25,971 nt of DNA. Origin: Psammoneis japonica. Its lineage: Eukaryota. The position numbers were made by a program, and so were the translations under genes. The number at the start of each line of letters is the position of its first letter. The first letter of the stretch is position 1. Positions 1-25,050 of the stretch are shown here, piece by piece. The notes under the pieces were generated by a model. That model did no database searches. It saw only the letters and a list, made by a program, of their open reading frames with translations, and was not told the DNA's origin. The stretch is taken from NCBI GenBank assembly GCA_008632985.1, contig QPGO01000023.1, positions 465,266-491,236 of the forward strand. The letters run 5' to 3'.

Positions 1-4
1 CATC

Positions 5-1324
5 CCAGATGGTTGTGCCAAACAGCACTGGCATGCTTCAGCAATGTGCTTGTTGTCTGTGTTTGCCCACAAATGCAAAGTTGTCTTTGAATGGCTGGAG
101 CACCTGGACAGGGCAAATGCAAGGTTGATGAAATTAGAGCCTGCACCAAATTTGCCACATGTCAAGAAATGCAGTCTGCAACTGTTGCAGGAGCAAGCAG
201 CAACAAGGACAAAAAATCAGAGCTGATGCTTTGGTCATGCAGTGGAGCACAGTGTCTTCTTGCAGGAGTGTTTGAAAATTCTTTTGGGGAAGAGAGTGCT
301 TTTGGGGAAGTTGTTGGTGACAGAGGAAACATGCTTTGAGGGAATCCCACAAAAAGTTGAAAGAAGTCAAAGGGTGCATCAACTGCAAGACCCAAAGGAT
401 GTTTCTGGTTCTTGCGCCAAAGTCAAGTTGCAAGGATTGGCGCAACTGTGTCAGTGCTGTTGTGGCATTGGTGCCATGTGCCATTTTTGATTAGAGCCCT
501 TTTTCCCTGTTGGCTGGGTTGCCATGTGACACATTCCTTGTGCTTGTGATGGCTGCCCAGCTCAGCTCAGACAACCTTGGGCAAACAATGAGCACAACCA
601 AGCAGCCTTGACATGCATCTGGCAACCAATCTCACAAACCCTGGCCCATCTTTGAGGGACTGAATGATTGGCAAGTTTGTCAGGTTGTTCAAACAACTGA
701 GAGTGTTGCCAACAAGGCACAGTCAGTTCAAAAACTGGGATGGATTTTTGATTGAGGAAAAGGCAGAACAAGTTGTTGCAAACAGCTGTGCCGCCCTGTC
801 TGGTGAATCTGAAAAGGGCTTTTTTCTGCTGCAACTGGATGAACTGCTGCCCAAAGCACAAGAAAATGCTGTGTGGAATGAGTTTGATCCACCTGCAAAT
901 TTCAAGGCTGGTCAGTGGGTTTGCATGGGAACACATCCAACCAAGCCGTGCTCCAAGGGCCAGAGGATGGTGCTGCACTCCTGGAGATGCTGGGGAATGT
1001 CAAACAAGAGTTTTGCTCAAGCAAATTGCAGTTGCAAACATTTTGCTGAATGAACCACCAGGCTCTCTGCAAATTCCAAGGATGTGCAAAAGGAATGAGG
1101 CTTCACTTTTCAGCCCCCATCATTTGACTGAGGATGAGCATGAAGCCATTCTTGGTGCAATGCACCAGCATGAGTCACTGGATCATTTTGAGGATTGCTT
1201 GGATGATGATGATGAAGAGCACAGCAAGCATGAAGAGCCAGAGGAAGAGAGTGACAACAAAGCAGAGGAGGACAACAGTGGTGCGTGGGTGTGGGGGTGT
1301 TGGGGGGGGGAACAACAAAGCTGA
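5..1324 (+). pseudogene. Degenerate DDE-type DNA transposase (DGCxxQY...HGKxxxDG type; superfamily uncertain, possibly Sola-like), catalytic core to acidic C-terminus
   Basis: Nt 8-31 read DGCAKQHW (expected DGCxxQYR/K). After a frameshift, nt 91-150 read MAGAPGQGKCKVDEI (expected PGHGKxxVDG). A Cys cluster HIPCACDGC lies at ~529-555 and an acidic tail at ~1190-1275. Multiple frameshifts and TGA stops. Confidence 0.65.
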
Positions 1325-4278
1325 TGAGGAGGAACAACACGATGACTGGAAAATGAACAAGCACCATGATTGTCACTTTGCATCACCTGACCACCTGATC
1401 AGATGCACCACCCATGACACAAATGTGTGCTTCCAAAGTCACAGCTCACAAGCGTTCTGCTTGCCGACCCTCCGTGCTGTTTTGCCACATTTGGAATTTC
1501 AAACTGGCACACAGCGGCCAATTGTTTTGTTTGTCAGGGATTTGCAACACATTTCACCTCATGTTTGTCATTTCCAAGACACCAGTTCAGCCACCTGACA
1601 TCACTTGCTGGCATGAAAAATGGTGGTTGGAACCAAAGATCCACTCACAGCACAAGGCATTGCAGTGGTTGTTCACTGGATGGCACAAAATCATGCAGTC
1701 ATCATTGCAGGCTGTCACATCAATTTCACCACCTGCTTCCAAGGAAAAGGTTTGCTCCAAACTGCCTCAAAACTTCATTTTGGAGTTCCTTGGTGGGAAC
1801 TTCCCCCTTCAAACAGCTGCTCAGCATGCTCTTTGCAAGCAACACCTGGCTGTTGTCAGTTTCAACTCATTTGGCAGATGTTTCAAGGTGAGATGTGTGT
1901 TCATTCATTTCCAAGTTGCCGACAAAAGACAAAACACTGGCCAGGGACAAAAACACACAAGTGTCTTTGTTTCCTCTGCAAGAGGCAGCTTTGTGGGCAG
2001 GGGCCATTCTGTGGCAACTCAATGTTTGTTGTTGACAACACCTTTTCTTCTGGCAATGAGTGAAAACCATCCTCTGGCTTCCAATCTTTCAAGTTGTTCC
2101 AAACATCTAGAAACTGTGTCTTGGAGTTTCACTTGGCAGCCCAGTCAGGGCTGTGGCAGCATTTGTGGTTGCTCTGGACAGCACAACCAACAAAATGAGC
2201 ACCCTTCAGTTGCTTCTTGGGAAGAGCATCAATCTCCTTTACACTCAACCTCTTTGACTTTGCCAACCTGGGGCATGCTGCAAATGCAATGGACTTTGCT
2301 CTTGATCTCATCATCAGTGCCTTTTTGATCTGTCTTCTGGACATTGTTGTGTTTGTGCTTGGCACATCTGATGATGTTTTAACACCTTTTTGCTTGTGAT
2401 GGCCATTCCACTTGTTGGCTCATTTGACAAACCATTCTTCAAACAACATGCAGCCCACATCTCATTCATCGAAGCAACTGGACAAGTGAGGAACAAGTCC
2501 TGATGAGTCACCAGAGCTCAAACAATTTTTTTCACATTCAACATTGCTTGAGCATTGTTGTGCATTCACTCCATCTCCATTTCTCACTGGTGGTGCTGGT
2601 CTTTGCTCAAGCAAAAAATTGTGCTCTTGCTGCTCTTGGTCTCAGCTTTGATGTGCAAAGGCCACAAAGATTGCCATCATTTTGCCATCTCCATCAATGG
2701 CTTTCAACATCTCCTTTTGGCATTCATGAAAGGCATCTCCCATCTTTTTCTCCTTCTCTCCCTTCTCCCACCTCTCCCAAACTTTCTCCTTCTTTTTTCT
2801 TTTTGGTCTCCAAGTTGTGCATCTTCTTCCTTGGTGGCTCTCTCACAATCAGCCTCCAACTCAGCCTCTGACCCATCTGCACTTGCACCTTTGCTTCCAT
2901 CATGCAATGACAGCAATGCATCCTCTTGAAAAACAAATGCCGCTGCAGCTGGGGAGCCACCTTGTGCCAATTGGCAATGTGAGACCATGTGACAACTTGA
3001 TGAGCTCCTGCTTTTTGGCATCTTCTGAGGGGTGCTTTTGTGAGTGTGACCTGACGTTGGTGACAGTTGCCACCAAAACAGAGTGTCACTTTGGAGATGA
3101 TGACTTTCACAAGGTCTTGCACCCCAATCCAGAAAAATTGGTGTTGTCATTGTCAGCCAAGAGAACCCAAAACAAATGGTTGCACCACAAAGCTGCAAAA
3201 GCATCATGCAACATTTGACAATGCATGCATGCTGTGCAATCTGTGTCCACAAGAAGTTTGGGAATGTGAGGATCCTTGTGCACACATCAATGTCCAAATC
3301 AACAACATCCTTCCTGCAGCAACACTGTGGGTGTCAGACTTCATTAACTGGCTCCACTCAGAAACTGGAGAACAACCCAACTTCTTTTCCACCTTCTTCC
3401 TCTGAGCAAGTGACTTCTGATTGGATGGAATGATGGTTGGGTGTTTCATCCGAAATCCCTCTTGATCCCAAAATGGGATGCTTTGTGCATGTGCAAACTT
3501 GGTGCGCACTCCTTTCAATGCAAAAACATCAAATTGTTTTTTTGTGTGAAGGAACTTCACTCTCCAACAAACGTCAAACATGATCTGGCCACAAGGCAGC
3601 CAACGCAGTTCTTTCAATGTCTGGGCTTGACTTGTTGGGGGCATGCATTTCCAAACCACCAATGTTGACCTCACCACAGGTGCAAAGCATCACAATGCTG
3701 AAAAATTTCCTTGGCACTCTTGTCTTCTTTTCCTTCCCTGCCAACTGCTCATCATGTGTCAACAGTGTGAAAGGTGAGAACAGAGACTTGTTGAAGCTCA
3801 GCTGCCAGACTGTGGCTGCTGCACACAAGATTCCCACATGCCAAAATGCAGCTCCCACCAAACAGAGTGAAGAAGATCTTTCCAACTTTGATCTTGATTG
3901 TCTTAAATCCACTCTGCCATGGTGGTGATGGGATGACTGCAAAAGTCAAGAGCATTGACATGAGCAAGCACCGCTGGAATCTGCGAAATCACAGAGACAA
4001 AAAAGGCAGCAGACACCTCGGCCACATGCTTGTTGACTTCTTGTTCCCAGATGAGCTGATCTCCCATCTTGGGGCCAACCTAAAAAGTTGCAATCATGGC
4101 AGTGCAATTGCGATGCAAATTGGCATTTTCTTGGGCTCGACACACTCTGCTGAATTTTCACAGGAAGATGGAACAATCCCTCCAGGCATGCAAACGAACC
4201 AGTGTTGGCAACCTGCATGTTGCCCAGCTTGCTTTGCTTTTTTGTTTCTTTTTGGCTTGAATCTTGCACACATCCAGA

Positions 4279-4324
4279 GCAAGTTTGCTCAAGTTGGCAG
4301 CCGTTTGCTCAAAGTTGGCAGCCG
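4279..4324. repeat. Short tandem duplication GTTTGCTCAA(A)GTTGGCAGCC x2 near the right end of the TE block
   Basis: Two adjacent near-identical ~21-nt units seen directly; may be a subterminal repeat. Confidence 0.6.
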
Positions 4325-4706
4325 CACACATGGCGCGAGTGCTGAAGCAGAAAGTGGCAGTCAGACGCAATGAGAGGGGCCACCACCACAAAAGGTCTTT
4401 GGCTGATTTGCCATTTCATTGCTGGCAATGCCAATGGCTGCACCGTTCATTGGGGGGGCGAGGCATGGCCCGTCGGCGTCGCGACAACATGGTCGGTTGT
4501 TGCACACCGGCACATAAAAGAGTGTGCATTCTGTCTTCTGTTGACGCAGTCCCAAGCCGGGAGTGGACGCAGTCCTAAATGCGCATGCGCGAGCAACATC
4601 AAAATTCCAGACTTTTCTGGCATTTGCAGAACGGTGAAAGACATCTCACCTTGTCTCCTTTCATGGTCAGATGTCAGTGGAATGTGCATTGCATGTAAAT
4701 TTATAA

Positions 4707-5237
4707 ATGGATGACGAGGAAGAGCTTGTGCGTCAGGTGATTAACGAGAACCCTCCCGAGGATCGAGGAGTGCGTCCCGAGTGGGGGAGTCATCAGGGAT
4801 GGCATCGAGTTGAAGACACACACCGTAACAACCATGCCGAAGGAGAGCAAGGGAAAAAATTACCCAAAGACGAAGATAGAGATGGCGGTGGTGAAGCTAG
4901 TGGTGAGGTAATCACTGACTATAACATAAATGACGACGATCCTTTGGAACCGATGATTGAAGAGAAACCAGATGGGCAAGTCAATTGGCCTGTTGGCGGA
5001 GGGGCCGTTTTTAATTCTGTTGCCATGAAACAGGTGGATGATTTGGAGGGAAGGACATCACCGGGTGCTGTAACCCATGCGTTGCGAGGTGTAAAAGTAG
5101 GGAACGGGAATGTCGCTCAAGAAAAGGCGACAATCATGCGAAAACCTCTGACAATTGGGTTTGCAGCGGTAGTCTTCTTAGTTTACATTACACTTCAACG
5201 GCGGCGCACGATGAAAAGAACGAAAGATATGTTATGA
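4707..5237 (+). CDS. Hypothetical 176-aa acidic protein with one C-terminal transmembrane helix
   Basis: ATG-to-TGA ORF with normal TA/CG content. Hydrophobic LTIGFAAVVFLVYITL followed by basic QRRRTMKR. No family recognised; could be the 3' part of a longer gene. Confidence 0.55.
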   Translation: MDDEEELVRQVINENPPEDRGVRPEWGSHQGWHRVEDTHRNNHAEGEQGKKLPKDEDRDGGGEASGEVITDYNINDDDPLEPMIEEKPDGQVNWPVGGGAVFNSVAMKQVDDLEGRTSPGAVTHALRGVKVGNGNVAQEKATIMRKPLTIGFAAVVFLVYITLQRRRTMKRTKDML

Positions 5238-5568
5238 CAGCGAGCTTGTGAGACTGATTCGATATTCATTTATCACTTTCCGCCAAAGTAATTCGCCCAA
5301 TTAATTGAGAAAAATGAAGCATTCAAGCATGGTAATTGTCATAGCCATTTCTTTGTCTGGACTCGCTGGCTGAATAACTAGCCTCGGTATAGCTGTCAGC
5401 GTATTCTGAATCTATCTGTGGGTGTGGTCATTGCCAAATGGCTTTCCATAATCTGCGGCACGCCATATTTGAACGTACTCAAATCTCACTGGAGGAGCTC
5501 GAGATTCGTTTGGTCATGCTAGTACGTTGGTTTCGAAATACTGGTGCGAGCAGATATCGGCACAATGA

Positions 5569-6504
5569 TTAAGACTGCTTCATTCGCCTCATAGCAGCAT
5601 CCGCTCTTTCACATCGCAACCGATCAATGTTCCTTTCATCTTTTCGTGTTTCTGCCAAAGGCTTCCGCTGTTGTACTAGCATCACGTTGTTGCTGCTACG
5701 ACTATCGTCGCCTTCATCGTTGCCGTATCCTCCGACTGGACCACCTCTGAGTTGTCCATCAAGTTCCTTCGCCGTCATTTCTCCTGCCATCATTTTGCCG
5801 CCATCATTGAATACTGAGTAGGCAGATGAAACACCACCCATCTCCGTGTGTTCTGACGCCCATTTATCCCGCGAACCGAGCGAAAACATGCCAACAATGA
5901 GGATCAGGATAAAGACCGGGGTTGTAAAGACAGGTAAAAATGACGTAGCATGCACTGGTCTTGATGCATGTTCCTCGCTCAATAAGTCATTGCTCGCAAC
6001 TGTAATGACATCAACGTAGATTGCGATGGCAAGCGCCCCTGCTGAAACGGCCAGATACGCGGTCTTTCTTCGCTTGCCGCTCTCCTCGGCGCTGCGAACC
6101 ATTGGCCAAGAGCTTTTCCACGACCACCACACAGCCACAGCTACAGGTGCTTCTGCCCACGAAAGAATTAGACAGTGGGTTCCAAAGTTGATGGCCTCTC
6201 GCTCCACCTCTCGACTCCATGCAAGATGCAGAAGATTGACTTGACACTGGTTATGGGACACTACCTACTCTCTACTCGATGCCCTTTCTGCGAATGAAAA
6301 CAAAGATTTCTGTGAGATTGCAACAAAGGCGCTTGTGAGATTACTTCGGAACAAACAGCACGTTGACGCATCTACTATGAAACTTACAGATGCCTTATAT
6401 ACTGCGGTAAACGCGTTCTCCTTCTTCTGAGAAGACGACGTGCCATGAGCCCTGTTGGCACTGTCATCGGATGGTGCTGCTGTTGATGATGTGTTGGATG
6501 TCAT
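5569..6504 (-). CDS. SAYSvFN-domain membrane protein (SAYSD1-like), probably with one intron
   Basis: Exact SAYSVFN motif after a hydrophobic segment, followed by G.MTAKELDGQLRGG. ORFs 6265-6504 and 5569-6261 share a frame and are separated by one TAG (6265-6267). A GTAAGT donor at 6387 (phase 0) and in-frame acceptors at 6265 or 6247 would remove it. Exon structure is inferred. Confidence 0.8.
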
Positions 6505-6529
6505 AATAGTGCTTTTTATCGCGTACCGG

Positions 6530-6763
6530 TACCAGTAAAAAACCGAATTGAGTCCTTATTTTTGCCATATGTTGAATGGCCATTTTTGCCCATCATTGGC
6601 CTAAAACTGACCATTTCTTCGCATTTCCTAGCTTTTCATCATCTCTTAACGAGTTCTTTGATGATAGTCGGTTGTGAAATGGGCTTGGGATTAGCTTAAT
6701 CTAGCTGCAAAAGTTGCACCTTTTTCGCGTAATGACTCAATTCGGCCCCCCTGTACATTTCTA
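6530..6763 (+). mobile_element. MITE-like element, copy 1 (end A at 6530, end B' at 6716-6763)
   Basis: End A TACCAGTAAAAAACCGAATTGAGTCCTTAT and end B TACAGGGGGGCCGAATTGAGTCATTACG share the core CCGAATTGAGTC.TTA in inverted orientation. Both ends and internal sequence recur in reverse downstream. Confidence 0.7.
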
Positions 6764-7083
6764 CGTGTCAAGTACCAGAAGAAATTCAACATATCTCCAA
6801 ATCAGCAAGCAGCACGGAGCAGTGAGGATATATGATGTACGTGTCTTGATAAAAAAATTACATGAGAATTGTTGAATCTCGTTTCCGCTTCAAAAAATAC
6901 AAACGACCATGTTCGACGGCAACGGGCAGCCGGAGAAAACTGAAACACCCAAATCCAAACACATGGTCAGAAGCAGCAGCAATTGAAGATTATCACAGCA
7001 ACAAAAACAGTTTGATTACTTGGTTTTTTCATCATTTTATCGATCGATTCAACATATGGGTCGGATAAGGACTCAGTTCAGTC

Positions 7084-7113
7084 ATAAGGACTCAATTCGG
7101 TTTTTTACTGGTA
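7084..7113 (-). repeat. Perfect 30-bp inverted copy of 6530-6559 (end A')
   Basis: ATAAGGACTCAATTCGGTTTTTTACTGGTA is the exact reverse complement of 6530-6559. It could close a ~580-bp TA-flanked element 6532-7111. Confidence 0.9.
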
Positions 7114-7225
7114 GGGCCTAGAAATGTACAGGGGGGCCGAATTGAGTCATTACGCGAAAAAGGTGCGCCTTTTCAAAGATGTCGTTCAGAGATGATGATA
7201 AGCCACTCTCTACTAACTGCCAGTA

Positions 7226-8815
7226 CAGTCTGCTCGCTCTAACATATACTTTTTAACATATACCCTCTCTATAACGTATACTAAAAATCCGGCCTGACCC
7301 CTCGGACGAAGGTCAGACTTCCCTGTTAACAGACAGACCGACAGACCGACAGACCATTTCGCGAATCCGTGATACGACTAGTTTGAGGCGATGAAACCAT
7401 TAAGACTACACTTACAACAACTGTAAACACCCTTGTTGACCATTATTTAACTCTAAGAAGTGGTCCTGGGCTTCTTTGTACCTAACAGGACCAAAGAATT
7501 GATGAAGGCAGTCATGAGTTTTTTCAAAAATTACAGTGGTGGCCGCGCGAACATGGCCAAAGCACATGGCGAAAGCCCTCTGCCAATCAGTGGAACGCCT
7601 CGTATGTAGAAAATATACTGACACCTACACGATCGCTTTTTTTTCGGTCGCTTTGCTTGTGCACACGAAATCTCAACAAAAATGTTTGCAATTCTGACAA
7701 GATTCAAGGTTGAAATCGATGCTTCTTTGCATTTTCTAAGGAGCTGTCATCTCACTTTTTCGAGTTTTCGGTTTAAACAAAACGCAAAACGTTCACAAAG
7801 AAGCAACAAAAAAGCAACAATTTACTCAACGATTTGGGGTGTTCGCACCTCAAGCAAAACAACATTTTCCACAAGTGTCACCAAAAAATTCCTCTGACGA
7901 GTCTCTTCCTTGTGCACACGATTTCACAATGGGAACACGTCGGATGAATGCGCACAGATGCGACATGGAGAGCTGAGCGGAAGTGCTGAGGAGCCATCAT
8001 GGCAAAATGCCGATTTTCCCTGAGTGTTTGCATCGAATCCATGGCAGAGTGCAGGGTTCGTGTGGTGCGTTTTACTGTCGAGAAAAGAGCACAAGGTGAA
8101 AATTATTTTTGGTGCACGCGCAGCACATGGGAACTGAGCAAAATGCAGTGTGTGGCCATGGCGGCTTTCCGAGTCGACACTGCATCCCTCCTGTTGATCC
8201 CGAGGAACATTTGCGTTCGCACATTGCCACAGATCATAAACATTGTAAAGCTGTGCATGCCGAAAACTGTCCCTTGGACTGTTTTTTCGGCTCTCGTTTG
8301 CCACATTTTGCAGTCGTTCAGGTGCCATCAAAGTTTGTCGCGTTTACAAGGAGAAGATTGGCGAGAATGGAAAAAATGCTTTTTCATCACACCACAATGT
8401 CACACAGGCAAGATTCCCACACACAAACGATGCAGCAGCATCCTGCTGCGTGTCTTTTCTGTTGCCTCGGCACCATTGCCTCTCTCGTGTTGTTTCGTGT
8501 TGCTCTGCATGAACATGCATGCTCATCCTCGTGCGTCATGCAACATCACAGACTGAAACAAAGTGTGGCCAAATTTTTAAAGTGCTGAGTCTGCCTGTGG
8601 TCAAGGCTTTCTACGCGCGTTTCGCCATGTGAAGCGTCGTGAGTCGTGAGGGAGAAGCGCAAGATTTTAAACTGCGCAAATCTTGGCACTGACTCCACTT
8701 GCGTGGCAAACACACGCACTTTTGCACCAGGATGGAATGACATGTGCCCTCTCTACAACATGCACTAAAAAACCGCATGTGCCCCCAGTGCACACATGTT
8801 AACGCGAGCAGACTG
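7226..8815. mobile_element. ~1.6-kb non-autonomous TIR DNA transposon, Tc1/mariner/pogo-like, with TA target-site duplication
   Basis: TA|CAGTCTGCTCGC..TAACAT at 7224 and ATGTTA..GCGAGCAGACTG|TA ending 8817. Subterminal 34-bp direct repeat (7257-7290 / 8741-8774). No recognisable transposase ORF. Confidence 0.8.
7329..7355 (+). repeat. ACAG/ACCG microsatellite inside the TIR element
   Basis: acagacagaccgacagaccgacagacc seen directly. Confidence 0.7.
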
Positions 8816-8858
8816 TAGTTAAAAAAATGGCCATTCAAGACAGACTCAATTCGGTTTT

Positions 8859-11800
8859 CATTGACCACTCAGTGGTTGGTGATTGCAGACTTTTTCGTGT
8901 CGGTCCGGCAGTCGGGCAGTCGGGCAGTCGGGGGGTCGGGCAGTCGGGGGGTCAGGCAGTCGGGTTGTCCGTCTGAATTTGAAAGTGCGCCCCTCGGATT
9001 TTGGAACGGGATGGGTTGTTCAGTGCAGATGAATTCTTCGGATTCGTAGAATGATCATTGAGGACATGAGAGGTCGTGGGGACATCCTAAAAAATCGATA
9101 AATTCCCTGCGATGGGCACGTGGCACGGTTTTTCAGGAGAGCTCGAAAGTGCTGTAAAATTGGGATTGCCGGCGTGGCATGTTCAAAAATGCACTCAGTT
9201 GCACACAAAGACAATTAATCATGAATTCTGCACGAAACAGTCACATTTGGGAAAACATGTCGAACAATGAGTGAGTTTGTGCGATGCGCCATTGTGGCGA
9301 TAAATTGGAAAAAAAAGAGTGTCCGTGCACCTCGCTGCAGCCCCAAAAATGGCATGAGACATCAAATGTGACGGTCATCCGCGTCACCGGTGCGGTGGCC
9401 ACGCCACTCAGCCACCACAACACTGGCCCCGGTGGCAGGGCCCTGTGCACGTAAAGACAATGCAGCATGCAACGGCACACACCCACCCACAAAAGCGAAA
9501 GACAAGTGGTCAATGCTCCCCGCAGGCCTGGTTCACTGCCGGCAGCACGTGCGCCTGAGAAGTTCACGTGCAACATCACTTGTCACCTGCCGGCAGCTGC
9601 TCTCTGCTCTCCACTCTAGCTGCCAGCAGAGAGAGCAGCTGCTGCTGCTCTCCAGAGAGCCAGCAGATTTGAGAGAGTGGCTGGCTGGAGGAGTTGTGTG
9701 GTGTGAGTGACAGACGGTGTGGTGGGGTGAAACGGCGTCATGCTGGCAGAGGGAGCTGGAGGGTTCGCAAGGATGGTGCAGCAAGTTGTGTGTGCAGTTT
9801 GGAGGAGCAGTGCAGGAGTTGGTCAGCAAGTGCTGTGGTCATGGCAAGGCGAAGCTTTGTGGGCCCCATTGTGCAGATCACAGAGCAGGAGGGGTGGCAC
9901 AGGTGGCATGCTGGTGGGTGATGCCGAAGTGGGTGGAGGTGGCGCTTGGCAGACCACGTGGTTGGAGGTGGGATCGAGTTGTTGTTTGAAGTGGGAGTGA
10001 CAAAGGGTGTGGGGGGACAAGGTCTTGAGAAGGAAGGTCTTGACCAAGGTGCAAAAATTGTCTGCTGGGTGTGGCCCAAAGAGCAGGGTTGCTAGAGGGC
10101 ATGGCAGCTTCATGGTTCTTGAGCTGCAAAAGGAGTGGGGGCTGGTTGGGTGATGAGAAAAGGGATGGTGATGACAGTGACAGAGTGGCACCCAACTCCA
10201 CCTGATGATGTGGGGGTGTGGGATTGGAGGAGCAGTGCGTGAGGTGGGAGGGGGGCTCACATTGGGTGGCGAGGTGTTGGGTGGCATGTTGCAAAGGGGA
10301 GAACCACAAGGTGTGATGGGCACAGGGTTGTTGGGGTCAAAGCTGCAGCAGACATTGGACACAAGCAGCAGGTGCAAGATGGGTGAGATGGCACAGGTGC
10401 AGCAGAGGGAACTCTTGGTTTTGGTGCCTTGAAAGCAGGATGACAGGTGGTCAAGGTTGGTGTGCAGGGTTGCAGCTTTTTGTGCTGGGGAAGGTTTGGG
10501 CAAAGGCCATGCTGCTGCTGACAGTCAACCAAAAAGGAAGTGATGGCCTGGGCATGTGGTGATCTCAAGAGAGGATGCCGGGTTGTCAGCTGGATTTTGG
10601 GAGGGTGTTTCTTGGCAAAGAGCAGTGGCACTGGCTGGTGGGAGATTGAGGATGGGAGAGGAACCGGGGGTGGATGTGAGAATGGCGGTGGAGGGCAGGC
10701 AAAGCACCCTTCTTGGCAACATTTGCCCCCCAGCATCAGGAAGTGCCATCACACTGGCAGCCATGGCAGGAAGTGCAGCTCCACTCAGAAAGGGCATGTC
10801 GAGTCTTCCGCTGGGGCTCCATGCTTTTCTCTTTGTCGATGGTGTTCCAAAAGTTGAAGACAGGCTTCCATCAGCCCCTTGTTGGCATCTCTGTGCTGTG
10901 TGCAGAAACTCTAACCTCTGGTTTGCTGAGTTCTCTTCCAGAGCCGGAGGTTGTTGGCAGTGTGGACAGGGTGCTGAGTCATCTGTGCTCCCCTGCATCC
11001 CCTCCACAGTTTCCAAACACACTTCTGCCATGCTCCCGCCTGCTCACCTGTTCTGTCCTTTTGACTCCAACATTCATGATGATGCTTCCCATGCTTCCTG
11101 CACCCACTGTCACCAGTGCCGTTCTTCCTGATGCTGGCGCTGATGAGTTTGAGCCATTGGCAGCTCAGTCCTCTGTTGTGTTTGTTGATCACACCACCAT
11201 TGAAGCAGTTGTCCACAAGGACAACTGCACTTTCCCAAACAGCGCCATTTGTGCCCAACCAAAGCTCAGTGTGCAAGTGCTGCAAAGTGTGAAGCACTTT
11301 GCCTTTCTGGTGCTGGCTTTTGAGTGCAGTTTGATCTTGGCAACCCAACTCTGCACCCTTCAAGTGTCATGTGTCATGTGCTCTTCTAAAGAATCCACAA
11401 GAGCACCTTGATCCTGTGCCAGACATTCTTGGCATTTGTTGCAGATGGTGTGGTGGCGCTGCAAGTTCTGCCTCAGCTTGGCAGCACTGAGCTTTGTCAT
11501 GCTTCTCCCAAAGTTCCCACCAAGATTGCCACATGTGTGTGATCTGATCTGAGTTGCCCAAACCAGAAGAGGCTGGTTTTCTTTGCGGCACTTTTCTGGC
11601 AGGCTGGACTCACAAAGATGAGACTCTTGAAAGGTGTTCCACAGGGTCAAACAGCAGCCATTGAAAACTTGGCACCAGCCAACGTCCAACTGCTGGGCTC
11701 TCCACAGAGGTCAGTGCACGGGACTGAGATCCAATTCACAGACCATCTCACCATGAGCACTTCACCACACTCTGCTGTGCCACATGGCCCCTGCATGCTC

Positions 11801-14800
11801 AAGTCACCACCACACCATGCACCCTCTTGCTTTTTCCCAGAACTGTGTGCTGATTTCCTCTGCGGCATTTTCAGCTTTTTTTTTTTACATGCACAATTTT
11901 TCTCACATGATTCACAACAGCACACCCTCTCCCCAATGCCAAAAAGCAAGAGTGAGCACTGTTGTCATTCACGCACATTTGTGTGCTGTTGCCAGTCAAC
12001 AACACCAGCCACATGGCAGTGAATGACTTCACCCCATTGGCCGATGAGGTCGACCCCGATCCCTCACATTTGTCTTTGATGACAATGTTGATTTTGATGG
12101 CATGAAATGTTTTGCCAATGGCTTTGGCATGGAGTTGTTTGGGCCTGAGCTCAAAGCACAACTGTGCGTGCCTGTCAAAAAGCAGTTTGTGGAGCAAAAG
12201 AGCTGGGCACCTTCTCCTGAATTCCTTGCACTTTGCTTCCTTTGCCACAAGCTGAAGCTGCACCACATTCCACATGTTGTGTGAAGTCATCCACATCAAC
12301 AACATTGTGAGGAAACAAATTGGTCATCCAGACACGTGGCCCCACATCGCCACACGTGGTTGGTCAATGAAGTGATCCCATTGACTGAAGGGCAAATTTG
12401 TTCTTTGATGCAGAAAGTCAAAGGATGCTCTGGAGTGCTCAGCCTCTGCAACACATGGTTAGATGAAAAAAGATCAGCAGCATTGTCCTCACCTCCACCA
12501 CACAGTCAGCCAAGGCCATGACTGAGTTTGCACACCCGATCATTGCTGGTGATGACCTCAAGGATCCACCAACAGGCAAGGCTTGTTTCCATTTTTTGAA
12601 GTGCACTGGTCTCCTGTCCTTGATGGATGACCAAGCATGACCTTCATGGCTCTTGCTTTGTTGCTGAAACAGTCATGCATCATGTTGTGCACAAGAAAAC
12701 TGAAACAAGTCAAAGGCTCTCACAGGTTTTTTGGAAGATGACTGCCCAGAAGGAGTGGCGCACATTTGTCAACAGCTTTCTTGTGATTTGTGACTTGAGT
12801 GATGTTGTGTCACAGGCAGATGCTGTCAAAGTTTGCATCAGAGACAAATGACATGACATCAAGGACCAAGTGTCAAAGGACAGTGATGTGACAGCCCATT
12901 GCAAGGTGCACCAGACAAAAATCAATTCAATGCTGGAGCAAGAATTTGGGAAGCATTGTCCAAAGAAGCAGCCTTGCACTTGTCCCAGGTGCAGCAAGCA
13001 GCCAACAATGCTTCTTTGCAGAGTGCATGACCAAAGGGCAGATCATTTGGAAGATGATCACAAACAACAAGAGCACACATCAAAGACCACCATGAAATTA
13101 GAAGGCAGCAGAAAGATGGTGCCTGCCAATGACTGTGAGAGCACATTTGTTTTCCTGTGCTGTCCTGTGTCCCCTTGACTCACAATTTTTTTGCTTCAGC
13201 CAATCTTCTGTTTGACAATGTGCAAGAGCCTTCTTTGACTGTCCCTCACAAGACAGCCAAGACCTCATCTTGTTCCAACCTGGCACCTCCCAGGGCATCT
13301 GGCAATGTGTCCTTGGCAGGAGAGGCAAACTGCTGCACCCTCACCCTGGACATTCCCACTTTGACAGAAAAGGTCATCCCAGCCAAGCTGTCTTTGTCCT
13401 TGTTGAATGGCGCCAGTTCATTCCAGCCCTGACATTTCTGGGAAGCCCCCTGTTGTTGGTGCCTTGCCTCAAGACCCCAATGACATGTCTTGGTTGGACA
13501 AGTTGATGCTCAGCCAATGCTGAGTGAAGTTGGTGATGCAGTCAGAAGACAATGGCCATTTGAGAGAACTGAATGATGTGTGCACAAGAAGGTGGCCAGG
13601 TGCACACTGGAAAAAGATGACCACAATGACTGACTCCCTGGGTGAAGTCAACAAGGGTGAGGGACCAAGTGAACAGAGTGCACGTTTCATGAGAGCAAGT
13701 GATGAGTTGTGACAAAGGCCATGAGGAAACAAGAGATGTTTGAGTCACAATCCTCACCTCTCTCATGAACGATGTTTTGGATTTGTGCCAGATGGTGGAG
13801 GACACAAAGAGAAACATGTGTGGCAGGGAATTTTGCTGCAATGAGCTCTCATCAGGTCTGCTTGGTGATTGGCTTGCAATGTGCAAGACTCGTGAAATGA
13901 TGAAGAGGTTGTGCAACAGCAAAGTGAGGAACTGTTGCACAATGAAGCACACAAACACATGTCAGCCACCACACTGGTGTTTTCATTGCATGGAGCTGGG
14001 CTTGAAAAGGAAGCAGACATTGCCAGGCATGGATGGAACCCATGCAGAACCAAAGAACACTGGCAGATTGTTGGCGGCCAGGCGGCCTGGAGACAAGGCA
14101 AGTTGTGTCATTGCTTCCATGAGGAGCACGGGAAGGACAGCAAGTTCTTCATCAAGGACAAGTGTGTTGCAAGTTCAAAGGGAAACAAATTAAGTTTGGT
14201 TCTTCATTGATCTGACATCATGAGATTGAAAGAGACATCATCAGTCAATTTGCCAATGCATGGCATGGACAAAAGTGGGTGTGTGCTGGCCCACTTGTGA
14301 AGCACACAAAGTTGGAGACATGTGGTCATTCTGGACTCACAGTGGACAAAAATGTGGTGTCACTTGTGTTGCGGGACAACTGGCATCTTGCTTTGATCAT
14401 GGTCTCATCAAAGCAGAGCCTTTGTTGACACTGACCTGCACTGAAATGAATTTTTTCATGTCAACTCCATGAGTGACAAATGGGTGGATCGTGCAGTGGA
14501 AGGATGCAAGTTCAGCAAGTTGATTTAAAACAGAGAGGGCCAGGATTGAAAGTGCGCTGCAGTTTGTGGATGAGGTCAGAGGCATTGCGGATGCACCCAA
14601 GGACATGGCAGATTTCTCAGATGGGGAGCAGCATGCTGGCACATGTCTTTGTCATGCTCTGTTTGAGTCAGTGGCAAGGTGTGGCAGGAGCTGTCCACAG
14701 CACATGGAAAGGAAAACTTTTGCAGGTTGAATTGTTGTGTGTGCTGCATTTTGACAACTTTGACATTGGCCCGTGCAGAACAAATTTCAATGTGTGAGAT

Positions 14801-16050
14801 GGATGGCAGGCAGCAATCGTTGTGTTTGAATTGAAGATTTCATTGCCAAAATGTCAGCGCAGCGGTTGAAAAATGAGAATCATTGGTGAGAGTGTTGAGA
14901 TGTCAGCATTTAAAAATGCTTTGAATTGAGACAACAGCAGGCTGCAAAGGGATGCGCAACACCCTTTGCAAGACACAAGAAAGCCAACAGATCACAACCT
15001 GCAAGGCCATGCCAAAGACATTGCAGACAAGGAAAGAGGAAGGGAACATCTGCTTGTGATCTAAGTCCAAGGGTGGCAGTGGTGGCAGAGTGGATGGGAA
15101 CAAGTGGAGGGTGCCACACACTCAAGAGAAAAGTGGAAGAGGTGGCAAAAGGAAAGAGCTGTTCCCAAAATCAAGGTTCCTGACTGGGGCAGACATGTCA
15201 AGCATGAAAGGTGTCACGGCCAACATGGAAGAACATGGCCAGTGGCAAATTCAGCAAGTGACGCTGGGCCGGGACATGGGAAGACTGGGCAAAGAAGTGT
15301 GTTCCAAATGCAGTCAATTCAAAAAGAAACCCCATCTCACAGTCAACAATGAAGAGTGCAACAAGTGGCAAGTGCTGCACAAAACTCTGCAGAATGAAAT
15401 TGAGCAGTGTGCTGCCAACACATCTGCCATCCTGTTGACAGAAAAGAGCCCCCAAGCACCGGTGCACACAAACCTGACAAAACGGCAGGAATCATGGGGG
15501 GGGGGAGGGGGCAAAGGATCAGAGTGATTCAACAAGCAATGTGATGATGCAAAGAAAGATGGAGCAAGTGATGCAAGGGTGCAGTTTGACACAGAGCACA
15601 GCAGCAACAACAAGAAGGAGAAAAGTGATGAGAAGGGGGCAAGAGTGTAAGTGCCAAGAAAAAACTGGTGCAGAAGAAGCCAAAAAAAGCAATGCTTGAG
15701 CTGTCCAGCAGCAACAACAAGGGCAACATGGAAAACAAAAAAGGACAAGACCACGAAGAAGAGGAAAGCTCCTCAAATGATGACGATGGGGAAGACAAGA
15801 ACAAAGCTGCAACCCAGCACAGGAACAGCGCCTCTCAGCTGCAATGCATCCACTTGTGGACTGTTGACTGGTGGCAAATTGGCAAATCACTGACATTCAT
15901 TTCTGACATGCACTCCATCATTGACATTAAATGTGCACAAAGTGAAATGAAACTCTCTGCAAATGAAATGATTTTGGCTCAAACATTTTGCAGGGGTGGA
16001 GGGTGAGAATCCTCACAGGGAAGATGAGTGGTTGTTTCACAGTGATTCAA
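8859..16050. mobile_element. Large hypermutated repeat-derived block, unclassified (may be several nested elements)
   Basis: Near-total TpA loss, with CpG loss from ~9800 onward. Protein-like but broken + strand frames at ~12050-15830. Boundaries approximate. Confidence 0.65.
8907..8964 (+). repeat. 8-bp tandem repeat GGCAGTCG / GGGGGTCG, ~7 units
   Basis: Seen directly; preceded by the palindrome ACCACT-C-AGTGGT (8864-8876). Confidence 0.85.
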
Positions 16051-16761
16051 TTTTTCTCACAAGGAGGGGTGGGAATTCTCGTGGCATAAAAAAGGTTGTC
16101 TGTCACACAGTTAGAACTGCTTCACCATGTGCGCAACCAGCTGTCTGTCACAGTTTACTTTTTTAAACAATGCAGTGGTTAAAAGATTGCCACAAGAAAG
16201 GCAGACTTGATCACCACAATGCGCACTCTTATGAGCAATGTAGATGGTCATGGCAAGGGCACCATTCCAGATGTTGGCGAGCTTTGTCCAGCTTTTGATC
16301 ACTGCCGCATCCTTCACGTCGACGCCCTTCTTGGTCCTTAACTTTTTCGCTTTGCCACCCATCCTCATTCGCTGTATGTTTCAGGGGAATGTAACCTAGC
16401 GCTGTGGGAAAGATTGCCTCCATGTGCCCATGCCAGTCAGTCAAAGACATCTCTACAAAATCCCCGGACTCACCGAGAACGATAAGTTGATGTTTAAGAA
16501 GTACAAGGATTTGACTGCAAACCAAGCTCAGTATATCGTACATTCAATGAGCGTATCAACTCTCGTATTTCCACCTAAAGATCGTCCCAGTAATCACACA
16601 GCACTTTTTATGGTATAGGTCGGTTGTGCATTAGAGACGTAGAGCACTGTAGAATTGACGAGCAGTGTCTAAAGTATTCATCTATCAAAATTGTGCGGTA
16701 CGATCTTGAGAGGTTTGTTGCCATAGTTCGACGTGCCAATTTGGGACTGAGACCAGTCATT

Positions 16762-19749: not shown

Positions 19750-20157
19750 GGCGAACGTTTCTAGCTAATGACAACGCCAGAAGTATTCCAGTTGGATCCA
19801 AGCTCTTGCAACCTCTGTGCTACGGAACTGGGGTGTTTAAGCATAAAAGTGACGAGAACATAACACATAACAGCGGTCATTCCAGCCAACTCTGCCCATC
19901 CGCATCGTCATCGGCTTCCCGCCATTTTTTGATTTTTTATCCGGGTTCTTTTCATTGAAATCAGCATTGCTAGCGTCTGATCGTCGCTCGTCGACCTTAC
20001 GCGCGGGTCGTCCATCACGCGAGCGATGACACGCGAGAAAACCGCATCCAACATTCCATAAAACATCACTGACAATGAGCGATGAGCGGTGATTGACCCA
20101 ACATCTCCGAGTCTAGACTGGCTGATATCACTGACAGCAACAGGGACTGCTTCTACT

Positions 20158-22002
20158 ATGAAAATAAGAAATATAGATACGATCAATCTGAGAAAAGTCA
20201 CAGCATCCTGGTATAAGTCGCGAAGAACATCCCTGATGATTGAGTTATTTCTCACAACAACATGCTTCTTTAGCAGCTGTCGAAACTTTTACGTGGGCGC
20301 CTTTGTTCCAGAAATAAATCAGAAAGTGCGTCTGCCACGAGATGCTCGATACATAGCAACAACACCGCCTGAAAGAATACAACAACGTCAGAATAGTCTT
20401 CAGCTACGTGGTACTCAAGAGGCTATTTCAGATCTCGCAGAGGTGGACGTTTTGTATGGATACCGCACACAACTGGTGTATGATCCCAAACTGGAAAGAT
20501 ATGTTCCCATTTCACAGGATCATGTGTCACTTCCCAACAATATTAATGGAGAGGGTGCAGCAGACGAAAATTACGATGCTTCTTCGTCACATTTTGCTCA
20601 TCGAATAACGAGTCACTTCGCAAAGACTCCACCAGGCAGACTCGCTCGTAGAGTCAAGTCTCGAATCATGCCAACGCTCAAGGCATCCTTTCTGCCCGAA
20701 GGCGTCTCTCCATCGTACTACACGTTTGTTCGATGGAGAATTTTGCAGCGATTTGTAAACGCAAACGTTCACGTCTTTGGAACACAAAGTCTGCTCTTGG
20801 GGTTGGGATTAAAGAGCCGGTCGTTGGGCTTGAGTGCCGCGTTGAACTGGGTTCTAAAGGATGCACTGGGTAAGGTGACACGAATGGCGACGGCTTCCAA
20901 AATGGGACGCAAGTTTGATTCGGATGCCAAGAGATGGCGGTTCCGAAGTTCCCTCATGTTTGCGTTGGGCAACTTTTTGGAGATTGTCACGTACATTTTT
21001 CCACAGTTGTTTCTACTATGGGCCACTGTTGCCAATTGCTGCAAGCAAGTTTCCATGTTGACAAGTTCTTCTACTAGAACAGCCTTGTACAATTCCTTTC
21101 GCGATGGTACTAGAGAAAACATTGGTGATATTATCGCCAAGGGCGAGGCTCAAATCGCCGTGGTGGATCTCTTGGGGATTGCCAGTGGCGTTTCCTTGTC
21201 TCGAGCCGTGGGAACGTCTGTCCGATCCGTCCTGGCGGTGTACTTTTGTCTCCAAGTGATTGAAATCTTTTGCATGTACCATGAAATTCGGGCCGTGCAA
21301 TTCCGAGTCATGAATTTTGAACGACTCCAAAAGGTTGTCAATGTCTTTGTCAACCAGTATTTTGGAGACTACGAGATCGACTCCTGTATTCTACAAACTC
21401 CAAAGGAAATGGCTCAGGACGAAAAGATCTTTTTACCACCACGTCACCTGGAACGTCGAGCTATTGCGTTTGGATCGCTAAGCCGAGCCAAGCTCGCACC
21501 AGATGAATTGCAAGACTTGCTAAAAATATTCAAGAATGAAAAGTACATGATTGTAGTGGGCGCCGACGTGAAGAACCACCCCCGTCGACGAGCATCCAAA
21601 GCAGAGGAGAATTGCCACATCGTCTTGCACAAGGATGCTGGTAACAGTGACATTGTCAAGACGGTGTTGGCCTTGTCGCTGCTGCGTAAGAAGCTGAGCA
21701 AAATGAAGAATCCTCCGACTCGATCTCGAGACTGCATGGATATGATTGCCGAAACAAAGAAGGAGGCAGATCTGTTGTTTCCCGTGCTTCTCAATGCAAT
21801 GGCGAGACACGGATGGGCACCGCCGTCGAGATTTATGTTTGGACGAGTCACAATGAGAGCCGATTGGCCTTTGTCGAAAAGAAGCGACGAAAAGAGTAAA
21901 GCCAAAGAGAGTGATCCCACGAAAACGGAACCCACAAAAACAGAAACGAAAAAAGCAGAAAAGGATACCGACAAAAGGATGGAACAGCAGGATGTACCTT
22001 GA
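20158..22002 (+). CDS. RUS1/DUF647 (root UVB sensitive-like) family protein, possibly plastid-targeted
   Basis: Motifs FLPEGVSPSYYTFVRWR, AALNWVLKDALGK, FDSDAKRWRF, ENIGDIIAKGEAQ and VQFRVMNFERL. First in-frame ATG at 20158, alternative at 20236; the ORF track opens at GTG 20089. Confidence 0.88.
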   Translation: MKIRNIDTINLRKVTASWYKSRRTSLMIELFLTTTCFFSSCRNFYVGAFVPEINQKVRLPRDARYIATTPPERIQQRQNSLQLRGTQEAISDLAEVDVLYGYRTQLVYDPKLERYVPISQDHVSLPNNINGEGAADENYDASSSHFAHRITSHFAKTPPGRLARRVKSRIMPTLKASFLPEGVSPSYYTFVRWRILQRFVNANVHVFGTQSLLLGLGLKSRSLGLSAALNWVLKDALGKVTRMATASKMGRKFDSDAKRWRFRSSLMFALGNFLEIVTYIFPQLFLLWATVANCCKQVSMLTSSSTRTALYNSFRDGTRENIGDIIAKGEAQIAVVDLLGIASGVSLSRAVGTSVRSVLAVYFCLQVIEIFCMYHEIRAVQFRVMNFERLQKVVNVFVNQYFGDYEIDSCILQTPKEMAQDEKIFLPPRHLERRAIAFGSLSRAKLAPDELQDLLKIFKNEKYMIVVGADVKNHPRRRASKAEENCHIVLHKDAGNSDIVKTVLALSLLRKKLSKMKNPPTRSRDCMDMIAETKKEADLLFPVLLNAMARHGWAPPSRFMFGRVTMRADWPLSKRSDEKSKAKESDPTKTEPTKTETKKAEKDTDKRMEQQDVP

Positions 22003-22059
22003 TAGATACGCTACGTGACAATTTCATTCAACCACTGAAGCGGTTCAAAAGGTTTATCA

Positions 22060-23049: not shown

Positions 23050-23199
23050 GGCTTAAAATATAAATAATGCTATGGCGGTACCTATGTTCAATGTTCATTC
23101 CAGCCGCCGCCGTCCGCCATAGCCTTCGCCATTTTTATTTTGCCGTGCCCCCGTTTTGCACGGAATAGGACAGACGGACAGTCGGCTCCATTCACTGCC

Positions 23200-23345
23200 A
23201 CACTATCTCTGCTCTCTCTGCTGGCTAGAGTAGGGCTAGAGAGCAGCTGCCAGCTAGCAGCCACTCTCTCCACTGCTGGAGAGTGCAGTAGAGAGAGAGA
23301 GAGAGCAGCAGCAGCAGCTGCAGCAGCAGAGCTCCAAGAGCTGAG
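23200..23345. repeat. Low-complexity CTAG/AGAG/CAG tract at the edge of the TE block
   Basis: (AG)n and (CAG)n runs; 23209-23251 resembles revcomp of 9592-9638. Confidence 0.6.
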
Positions 23346-25009: not shown

Positions 25010-25050
25010 NNNNNNNNNNNNNNNNNNNNNNNNNNNNNNNNNNNNNNNNN
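25010..25050. other. Assembly gap (41 N)
   Basis: Run of N; true adjacency of the flanking elements is unverified. Confidence 1.

Follow-up and report, generated by a model that had tools for sequence, protein, structure and literature searches.

To our knowledge, TpA-directed hypermutation of nuclear DNA has one prior report, a 2026 preprint on a rhizarian alga. This preprint describes TpA to TpG/CpA hypermutation of NCLDV and virophage DNA integrated in Bigelowiella natans, reports 231 de novo mutations, measures de novo TpA to TpG/CpA changes in mutation-accumulation lines and proposes a defence by DNA adenine deamination; its main text presents no flanking-base analysis (Mettrop et al., bioRxiv 10.64898/2026.01.13.699255). 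Several other editors of adenine have been described. Amphioxus ADAT2 is reported to deaminate A and C in DNA, with TCG preferred for C, GAA preferred for A and hairpin loops favoured, and the TadA domains of ABEs are described as accepting a broad adenine context (PMC10354150). At the RNA level, fungal ADAT-based mRNA editing is reported to favour UAG/UAA (PMC11156358) and 5'UAG is given as a hot spot of ADAR2 (PMC10661471).

Here we analyze a 25,971-nt stretch of DNA (hereafter, the window). We consider it probable, at about 75%, that silent, partly repeated nuclear DNA of this diatom-like stramenopile undergoes a TpA-directed A:T to G:C hypermutation that prefers TAY, has come near saturation on both strands, and is accompanied by a slower loss of CpG.

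Blocks of DNA depleted in TA and CG

Using a 200-nt composition map, we drew block edges at ~4400, 7630, 16080 and 23400, and found that the depleted DNA forms discrete regions, separated by genes whose TA content is normal. Hypermutated block 1 (1..4400), in which TA and CG are nearly absent and TG and CA are doubled, contains 0-3 TAs per 500 nt (TA observed/expected (o/e) 0-0.08; CG o/e 0.04-0.51). TA and CG are also nearly absent from hypermutated block 2 (9601..16080), while hypermutated block 3 (23401..25971), which lies beyond the range covered by an earlier note on this DNA, has an N run at 25010-25050 and reaches the window end. A fourth block (7631..9600) lost TA only (TA o/e 0.18, CG o/e 0.89). 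As undepleted (genic) comparison DNA we used 10.2 kb of the same window, 4501-7500 plus 16201-23400. The first part (4501..7500; TA o/e 0.44-0.89, CG o/e 0.83-1.09) holds an ORF with a SAYSvFN domain (Pfam; 5569-6264, minus strand) together with a foldback region that is multi-copy and rich in TA, and the second (16201..23400) holds three genes: GH5 with CBM6/CBM35 (16762-19764, minus), RUS/UVB_sens (20086-22002, plus) and RRP42 (22060-23052, minus). As DNA free of TA loses the TAA and TAG stop codons, it acquires many long spurious ORFs that can mislead gene callers.

Contig depth at 1-2000 was 540-650, against ~60-70 for single-copy DNA, indicating that block 1 is partly repeated. Block 2 ranged from single copy (74-112) up to a depth of 512, and repetition in the window peaks in the TA-loss-only block, with depths up to 9589 at 8672-9338. 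Within the first comparison region, depth was 342-922 at 6004-7337, and a multi-copy, TA-rich element at ~6530-7340 is unmutated, so being repeated is not in itself a sufficient trigger. A Pfam search of 104 ORFs of at least 80 aa gave no credible hit to TE or viral protein domains in the blocks and no reverse-transcriptase domain; therefore, it is contig depth that carries the label of repeat or foreign DNA. Searches with Rfam and for tRNAs gave no hits, and a Pfam search found no deaminase gene in the window.

Across the three hypermutated blocks, TA o/e was 0.03, CG o/e 0.14 and TG/CA o/e 1.80, and the size of the TG/CA excess equals that expected from full conversion of TA and CG. We observed no depletion of AA, AT or GA. 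The A>G and T>C transitions, as read from composition and from comparisons between copies rather than from de novo mutations, are confined to TpA and yield TpG and CpA, with the products near balance between strands (766 NTGY, 822 RCAN). TCG was the most depleted NCG context (survival 0.10, versus 0.23 for GCG). As the block at 7631-9600 lost TA and kept CG, the losses of TA and CG are not tightly coupled.

This uncoupling bears on the possibility that thymine, not adenine, is the base altered. Modified thymines such as 5-hydroxymethyl- and 5-formyl-uracil mispair with G, and dinoflagellate DNA is rich in 5hmU. If the T of 5'-R-T-A-3' were oxidised by a TET/JBP-type enzyme, or modified in another way, T>C changes would thus follow, which in sequence data are the A>G changes of the other strand; furthermore, the T of TpA and the C of CpG each form the 5' half of a palindromic Y-R step, and the same regions have lost both. 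However, given the loss of TA without CG at 7631-9600, and given that the authors of the sole experimental precedent, in B. natans, read it as adenine deamination (itself putative), we regard thymine chemistry as unlikely. A second candidate is Pol eta-type error-prone repair synthesis (WA to WG), recruited to silent chromatin, as Pol eta makes A>G errors following a 5' T or A. Such errors would fall on AA as well as TA, but AA was not depleted (o/e 1.24 in depleted versus 1.07 in genic DNA), AG was not enriched (1.04 versus 0.96), and near-total TA loss with a sharp dependence on the +1 base is unlike the WA pattern. As AA is undepleted, the process is not WA mutagenesis, and a Pol eta-type source is very improbable.

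Flanking bases of surviving and converted TA sites

Twenty-two TAs survive in the three hypermutated blocks (7 TTAA, 4 TTAG, 4 CTAA, 3 CTAG, 3 TTAC and 1 GTAA), where block 3 was counted within 23501-25971 and a TTAG at 23401, on the block edge, was left out. Eighteen of these are YTAR (positions 135, 492, 2108, 2380, 3345, 3904, 4081, 9617, 10093, 10912, 11387, 12460, 13099, 14191, 14526, 14911, 15062 and 15928), the other four being TTAC at 2240, 11886 and 25130 and GTAA at 15648. A pyrimidine precedes TA in 21/22 survivors and a purine follows it in 19/22. By block, YTAR accounts for 7 of 8 survivors in block 1 and 11 of 13 in block 2, and the TTAC at 25130 is the single survivor in block 3. 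The earlier note had reported about 24 residual TAs, some 19 of them YTAR, in the strongly depleted stretches between 120 and 16000; our recount gives 21 and 18, and all 15 positions that it named are YTAR.

We counted all 16 NTAN tetramers in depleted and undepleted DNA. YTAR makes up 65 of the 416 TAs (15.6%) in the undepleted 10.2 kb, a share against which 18/22 has a binomial p of 1.2e-11 (Fisher OR 24). Within depleted DNA, YTAR-type flanks account for 24.3% of all Y-R steps (excess p 2.3e-8), and a first-order Markov expectation for YTAR is 32.5% (excess p 2.7e-6). The excess thus persists under every composition correction, confirming that it is real and far past chance (expected 15.6-32.5%, p 1e-11 to 3e-6). 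Since nearly all survivors carry a Y at -1 and most an R at +1, both strands must be targets.

The same survivors are predicted if what matters is instead a purine at -2 from the mutated A (R-T-A), and the earlier note had held that TAY and R-T-A could not be separated in this DNA. This was overly cautious, as the two rules predict opposite products. Flanking bases are invariant in purine/pyrimidine space, so the product class can be read for each context: TAY predicts that YTAY becomes YTGY and RTAR becomes RCAR, while R-T-A predicts YCAY and RTGR. We observed that y-YR-y steps are biased to TG and r-YR-r steps to CA in the three hypermutated blocks (pooled OR 1.71, p 1.7e-7), compared to an OR of 1.08 (p 0.62) in genic DNA. 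Per block, the OR of yTGy:yCAy versus rTGr:rCAr was 2.32, 1.56 and 1.35, and it was 1.43 in the TA-loss-only block. When imposed on the genic DNA of the window in simulation, a TAY rule left 12-14 YTAR among 14-17 TAs with an OR of 1.72-1.89, an R-T-A rule left 12-19 among 14-21 with an OR of 0.57-0.66, and a flat rule gave an OR of 0.98.

Likelihoods computed under three ancestral baselines (genic DNA, a genic subset, or uniform) favoured the TAY model over a flat TA model by 32-38 lnL and, in the saturated blocks, over the R-T-A model by 31-36 lnL; in the TA-loss-only block the R-T-A model was 3.7-4.8 lnL worse than TAY. A free four-rate model gained less than 1 lnL. The ratio of the two rates (a/b) was 3.05-4.9, and as the ancestral sequences are not seen, this ratio and the survival rates depend on those assumed baselines. 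The TAY preference is therefore kinetic, about 3-5 fold, and not absolute.

The TA-loss-only block adds 23 survivors to the 22 of the saturated blocks. These comprise 0 RTAY, 6 YTAY, 8 RTAR and 9 YTAR, and when the block was taken as 7501-9500, survival relative to the genic expectation was 0.12 for RTAY, 0.40 for YTAY plus RTAR and 0.71 for YTAR (chi2 p 0.017). These data support a survival that drops as more strands offer TAY. Together, the lack of AA depletion, the YTAR excess and this graded survival in a partly mutated block support a TAY preference over generic WA mutagenesis, as the earlier note had inferred.

A pair of copies within the window allowed individual changes to be read. An unmutated, TA-rich 34-nt segment (7254..7287, plus strand) and its mutated copy (8738..8771, plus strand) are identical in purine/pyrimidine space, and theirs is the only forward match longer than those presumed to arise by chance (24-26 nt exact; 29 nt with one mismatch). 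The mutated copy shows five TA to TG/CA changes and one CG to CA change, with CTAA and CTAC kept. In 5/5 of the TA differences the changed A lies, on its own strand, in TAT or TAC, and the single change that discriminates between the rules, ATAA to ACAA, agrees with TAY and contradicts R-T-A. This matches what the earlier note had said of the pair (as 7257/8741), including the kept CTAA; it did not mention that one TAY site, CTAT in the unmutated copy and now CTAC, was spared at 8754. Among paralogues, transitions occur at 515 places and transversions at 284. In the 40 of 812 paralogue differences that were listed, four are informative TA versus CA differences, of which three (4010, 8559 and 8677, each RCAR in this window and RTAR in the paralogue) agree with TAY and one (8696; YTAY versus YCAY) agrees with R-T-A. 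Given the product counts, likelihoods and simulations, we consider the R-T-A rule hardly tenable. These analyses show the TpA signature, its context, its action on two strands and its independence from CpG loss.

A proposed process for TA loss

We propose that the A of 5'-T-A-3' would be converted to G on each DNA strand, about 3-5 times faster when a pyrimidine follows the A (T-A-Y) than when a purine does, with little or no effect of the base preceding the T. RTAY, a good site on two strands, would be lost first; YTAY would become YTGY and RTAR would become RCAR; and YTAR, as the only context without a good strand, would survive longest. Loss of CpG (CG to TG/CA) would be a separate, slower and later process in the same regions.

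Two further alternatives were weighed. RNA-level A-to-I editing of retroelement transcripts by an ADAR- or ADAT-like enzyme could be fixed by reverse transcription; the blocks are partly repeated, and ADAR-type editors are said in the Discussion of the B. natans preprint to favour a 5' U. Action on one strand, however, would leave TAR after any base, yet 21/22 survivors have Y at -1, the product classes are near-equal, known editors are reported to prefer UAG, with the opposite +1 base (PMC11156358, PMC10661471), and the 104 ORFs searched with Pfam contain no reverse-transcriptase domain. As both strands are needed, products are symmetric and TAR is spared rather than preferred, we reject this candidate as highly implausible. 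That no mutation occurred, the DNA being foreign or selected to avoid TA and CG, or its bases being modified and misread, has the slimmest of chances: ancestors are not seen directly and the sequencing run that contains the window may be the assembly's own sample and hence not independent, but one signature recurs in unrelated blocks that differ in copy number, the window holds an unmutated/mutated 34-nt pair, transitions dominate paralogue differences, the TG/CA excess matches full TA and CG conversion, avoidance would not give a flank-dependent product asymmetry, and contigs of ~60-70x depth agree with the window (0-2 differences per 0.5-4.7 kb).

For a TAY-preferring hypermutation of DNA, the agent would be a DNA adenine deaminase (A to hypoxanthine, read as G) with a pocket reading T at -1 and Y at +1, and by analogy with the proposal for B. 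natans it may act in defence against repeats or foreign DNA. A TadA/ADAT2-like candidate would carry the deaminase motif HxE...PCxxC. The flanking rule, which applies to both strands and depends on a Y following the A but not on the base preceding the T, is a quantitative fingerprint that argues against Pol eta, ADAR-like enzymes and known ADAT-derived editors, may aid identification of the enzyme, and could serve as a read-out in heterologous assays of candidate deaminases. A second, saturated case in a stramenopile suggests that SAR algae widely share the process and that it can reshape large parts of a genome. More tentatively, diatoms and chlorarachniophytes may share a programmed, chromatin-targeted DNA adenine-deamination defence ("A-RIP") whose enzyme reads 5'-T-A-Y-3' on both strands, and the same or a sister deaminase might in addition drive T-C-G to T-T-G and so collapse all silenced CG and TA steps into TG/CA. 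Should this doubtful extension be true, TAY would be a handle on the enzyme, possibly a natural adenine editor competent on double-stranded DNA.

Comparison with known systems

RIP in ascomycete fungi resembles the process described here in its region-wide transition hypermutation of both strands, repeated DNA, dinucleotide context and sharp compositional blocks. It acts by C to T change, chiefly at CpA, and so creates TpA, whereas here TpA is destroyed by A:T to G:C change; with TpA almost absent and CpA enriched, fungal RIP is ruled out, and simple repeat sensing is hard to square with the multi-copy element that is unmutated in the window. Decay of methylated transposons by 5-methylcytosine deamination explains the CG to TG/CA part of the signature but is unable to remove TpA, which at 7631-9600 was lost without CG.

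The substrate loop of bacterial TadA is U-A-C-G, and TadA, ADAT2-ADAT3 and their DNA-editing forms resemble the proposed process in deaminating A after a 5' T or U, within a defined -1/+1 context. The reported TCG preference of amphioxus ADAT2 for C also parallels the depletion of TCG here; the ADAT-derived editors known from amphioxus and from fungal mRNA editing are described without the +1 Y preference that we observe. ADAR hyper-editing of repeat-derived dsRNA similarly gives A>G with a 5' U preference, but acts on RNA with its reported 5'UAG hot spot, whereas survivors here include TAG and both DNA strands are symmetric.

The closest precedent is B. natans. Going by the preprint, the cases differ in that B. 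natans is a rhizarian with recognisable viruses, a Rho of 0.45 (NCLDV region) and directly measured new mutations, while the DNA of this diatom-like stramenopile is saturated and partly repeated, lacks recognisable viral domains, lost CpG together with TpA and is read from existing sequence. Both have A:T to G:C changes confined to TpA that yield TpG and CpA on two strands, in localised blocks, many of them unannotated, with TpA depleted and CpA plus TpG enriched; with this window, a stramenopile provides a second case.

Composition of the depleted blocks and context of the surviving TAs

The three depleted blocks of the window (1-4400, 9601-16080 and 23401-25971) contained 0-3 TAs per 500-nt step, compared with 9-37 in the genic parts. 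Over the same steps, observed/expected ratios in these blocks were 0-0.08 for TA, mostly 0.03-0.3 for CG and ~1.5-2.6 for each of TG and CA. We then tabulated strand-symmetrised ratios for the depleted blocks, the TA-only block at 7631-9600 and undepleted genic DNA (4501-7500 and 16201-23400), which were, respectively, 0.03, 0.18 and 0.62 for TA; 0.14, 0.89 and 0.89 for CG; 1.80, 1.52 and 1.22 for TG (equal to CA); and 1.24, 1.35 and 1.07 for AA. These are the values expected for full conversion of TA and CG to TG/CA by transitions. As the block at 7631-9600 has lost TA yet kept CG, the two losses are separable, with TA loss being the earlier or faster one. This block is the most highly repeated element of the window (depth to 9589), and the adjoining 9601-16080 has lost both dinucleotides, which suggests that TA hypermutation came early and CpG decay later. 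As a secondary hint, CpG survival in the depleted blocks relative to genic expectation varied with the 5' base (TCG 0.10, ACG 0.145, CCG 0.18, GCG 0.23; chi2 p = 0.001), and conversion of TACG to TGCG may be the source of part of the GCG excess. The third hypermutated block also contains a 41-N assembly gap at 25010-25050.

Twenty-two TAs remain in the depleted blocks (TTAA 7, TTAG 4, CTAA 4, CTAG 3, TTAC 3, GTAA 1), with a pyrimidine before TA at 21 and a purine after it at 19. Eighteen of the 22 are YTAR, the context that presents TAY (an A followed by a pyrimidine) on neither strand, compared with 65 of 416 TAs in genic control DNA (binomial p = 1.2e-11). The earlier note had described the surviving TAs as mostly YTAR, and all 15 of the positions it listed have this context. 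It had also proposed that the pattern would be refuted if no excess remained after correction for composition; the excess persists both against the proportion of Y-R steps in depleted DNA that have Y..R flanks (24.3%; p = 2.3e-8) and against a Markov expectation of 32.5% for depleted DNA (p = 2.7e-6), confirming the YTAR observation.

Survival was graded, being lowest where both strands present TAY and highest where neither does, which indicates that the preference is kinetic. With the TA-only block drawn as 7501-9500, survival relative to genic expectation was 0.71 for YTAR, 0.40 for YTAY plus RTAR and 0.12 for RTAY, which offers TAY on both strands (chi2 p = 0.017); redrawn as 7631-9600, the block retains 9, 14 and 0 TAs in these classes. 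The corresponding counts in the saturated (depleted) blocks were 18 of ~85 expected, 4 of ~285 and 0 of ~172, so that YTAR itself was thinned about five-fold there if the ancestors resembled genic DNA. Survivors still in TAY on one strand were TAC in 13 cases and TAT in 4 (p = 0.051 against 250:233 in genic DNA), or 14 and 4 when site 2240 of the first block is included, and this hints that TAT mutated faster than TAC. These TAY-context survivors include 2240, 11886, 25130, 8345 and 8754, along with opposite-strand TGTA sites. TACA makes up 9 of the 14 TAC survivors compared with 76 of 250 in genic DNA, an excess consistent with TATA losing one TA and leaving TAC as a poorer target. Although T occupies position -2 in 20 of 36 pooled survivor flanks, the signal at -2 and +2 is too weak to claim.

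Products of TA loss under the TAY and RTA rules

The earlier note had held the TAY rule to be inseparable in this DNA from an RTA rule, in which a purine two bases before the A is favoured, but the products of TA loss separate the two. Because all changes are transitions, each flank has kept its ancestral class, purine or pyrimidine. The TAY rule predicts conversion of YTAY to YTGY and of RTAR to RCAR, whereas the RTA rule predicts YCAY and RTGR; CpG decay contributes alike to the two sides of the comparison. In depleted DNA, yTGy and yCAy stood at 395:306 and rTGr and rCAr at 374:495, giving an odds ratio of 1.71 (p = 1.7e-7) in the direction of TAY. The odds ratios of the individual depleted blocks were 2.32, 1.56 and 1.35, that of the TA-only block was 1.43 in the same direction, and that of genic DNA was 1.08 (p = 0.62).

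We fitted a likelihood model with per-strand rates for favoured (a) and unfavoured (b) contexts and a CpG rate, using three ancestral baselines. The TAY model outperformed a flat TA model by 32-38 lnL; it was also better than the RTA model, by 31-36 lnL for the saturated blocks and by 3.7-4.8 lnL for the TA-only one. Four free flank-specific rates added <1 lnL, indicating that the base before the T carries little weight. For the saturated blocks a/b came to 3.05-4.9, and for the TA-only block to ~3 or more. When the fitted rules were simulated on the window's own genic DNA, the TAY rule left 14-17 TAs, 12-14 of them YTAR, with an odds ratio of 1.72-1.89, close to observation. The RTA rule gave 0.57-0.66, and the flat rule gave 0.98 without a YTAR excess. 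Together, these data resolve the choice between the TAY and RTA rules in favour of TAY.

Repeated copies, neighbouring genes and targeting

Self-comparison of the window (exact/gapless, blastn, and in purine/pyrimidine space) did not reveal any repeat among the depleted blocks; the only matches standing out were a 34-nt pair and the foldback repeats at 6530-7173. The pair, TA-rich 7254-7287 and 8738-8771, is identical in purine/pyrimidine space and differs by five changes of TA to TG/CA and one of CG to CA. As had been claimed previously, the five changed As all lie in TAT or TAC, each read on its own strand, and CTAA is kept; one TAY site that the claim left out, CTAC at 8754, is kept as well. 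The only discriminating change, ATAA to ACAA, fits TAY.

We also compared the contigs of the single sequencing run found to contain the window, possibly the source sample, with positions 1-20000 at a similarity of at least 80%. The window's own sequence was present with 0-2 differences per 0.5-4.7 kb piece at a depth of ~59-71. In total, 1491 contigs aligned, 302 at ≥99%, 270 at 95-99%, 433 at 90-95% and 486 below 90%, with depth rising to 540-650 at 1-2000, 9589 at 8672-9338, 3377 at 9339-10005 and 512 at 12007-12673. Paralogues differed mainly by transitions (A>G at 139 places, C>T at 129, G>A at 121, T>C at 126), each transversion being seen at 29-46. Given these depths and the predominance of transitions, the blocks are partly repeated families that differ by transitions. 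Among 40 of the 812 difference rows, four clean TA-versus-CA differences were found, all informative for the two rules: 4010, 8559 and 8677, which are RTAR in other copies and RCAR in the window, fit TAY, and 8696, YTAY in other copies and YCAY in the window, goes against it. A second run gave no coverage of the depleted blocks, which does not count as evidence that they are silent. A 33-mer from the high-copy element, used unchanged in a metagenome scan, matched 0 loci. The segment of highest depth also holds a tandem array at 8902-8964 (7.8 copies of the 8-nt unit GTCGGGCA), just past which positions 8988 and 8990 are T in 28-29 paralogous contigs and C in the window.

The window is eukaryotic nuclear DNA with ordinary genes between the odd blocks. 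Pfam matches identified four of them. On the minus strand are a SAYSvFN-domain ORF (5569-6264), a GH5 cellulase of 1000 aa carrying three CBM6 stretches together with a match to CBM35 (16762-19764) and the RRP42 exosome subunit (22060-23052); the plus strand encodes a RUS/UVB_sens protein (20086-22002). In a protein database search with RRP42, relatives whose listed name gives the organism were diatoms in every case, and the top matches, listed without an organism name, reached 61-62% identity at most. On this basis, we take the source to be a diatom-like stramenopile. The GH5 ORF is uninterrupted with a bacterial-looking architecture, and horizontal transfer may be its origin; even so, TA is present there at normal levels, so the hypermutation does not treat it as foreign.

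Beside the genes, 6530-7173 carries nested inverted repeats (6530-6559 with 7084-7113; 6709-6763 with 7119-7173, 96% complementary). This TA-rich, multi-copy region (depth 342-922) escaped hypermutation and resembles a young element of the foldback or MITE type. As the multi-copy foldback region adjoining the genes (6530-7340) is TA-rich and unmutated, repetition alone is insufficient as a trigger; some parts of the blocks, moreover, have the depth of single-copy DNA. Since CpG decay hits the same regions, a plausible candidate for the targeting mark is a signal linked to chromatin or methylation.

A Pfam search of 104 ORFs of at least 80 aa from the depleted and TA-only blocks yielded no credible family, including no recognisable TE or viral domain, with the best E-value (0.013) missing every cut-off. 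Scans for Rfam families, tRNAs and tandem repeats contributed nothing further to the hypermutation finding. As the loss of TAA and TAG leaves TGA as the only stop, every frame of the three depleted blocks is crowded with long, overlapping ORFs (up to 309 aa, at 1399-2325). Their translations abound in Cys, His, Gln and Trp. The ORFs appear to be a side effect of TA loss, and such spurious reading frames in TA-free blocks are a trap for gene callers.

Candidate agent and relation to known systems

From the sequence pattern, we infer that the agent of hypermutation is a deaminase. The simplest agent would be an enzyme that deaminates nucleic acids and recognises the bases at -1 and +1 of its target, converting A to hypoxanthine, which would then be read as G. 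An identical base-pair change could instead start from the thymine of R-T-A, for which the sequence data would be alike. The survivors' need for both flanks and the balance of plus- and minus-strand products (NTGY 766, RCAN 822) favour an action on DNA, or in any case on both strands, over the editing of a single transcript that was later reverse-transcribed. Mutagenesis of the Pol eta type at WA is excluded by the normal AA content (observed/expected 1.24 in depleted and 1.07 in genic DNA). Undepleted AA, YTAR survivors and TAY-type products together support the T-A-Y interpretation, which had previously been preferred over generic WA mutagenesis.

The anticodon loop that is the substrate of bacterial TadA, U-A-C-G, matches the TAY rule, and early ABEs have been claimed to prefer YAC/TAC. 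On DNA, amphioxus ADAT2 is described as preferring A in GAA and C in TCG and as favouring hairpin loops, and the TadA domains of ABEs as having a broad adenine context (PMC10354150). UAG and UAA are described as favoured in fungal ADAT-based mRNA editing (PMC11156358), and 5'UAG as the hot spot of ADAR2 (PMC10661471). The TAY rule is unlike these described contexts, both those of the eukaryotic editors compared and that of the ABE TadA domains. One likeness to amphioxus ADAT2 is that its preferred TCG (PMC10354150) is the most depleted NCG context here, and a single 5'-T-reading deaminase that might act on both A and C is a lead.

Full-text literature searches returned no diatom report of TpA hypermutation, and only a preprint on Bigelowiella natans matched. 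In mutation-accumulation lines of B. natans with integrated NCLDV and virophage, Mettrop et al. report that the GC-biased single-nucleotide mutations in both elements all fell on TpA, with A>G or T>C accounting for 210 of the 211 mutations of the NCLDV region and 20 of 20 in the virophage region (bioRxiv 10.64898/2026.01.13.699255). As the agent they propose a DNA adenine deaminase similar to ADAT2, and the main text of the preprint is without a flanking-base analysis (bioRxiv 10.64898/2026.01.13.699255). The window is thus a second case of TpA hypermutation, after B. natans. Compared with that case, it comes from another supergroup lineage, has been driven to saturation and adds a flanking rule, TAY, that provides a testable fingerprint of this very recently described type of hypermutation.
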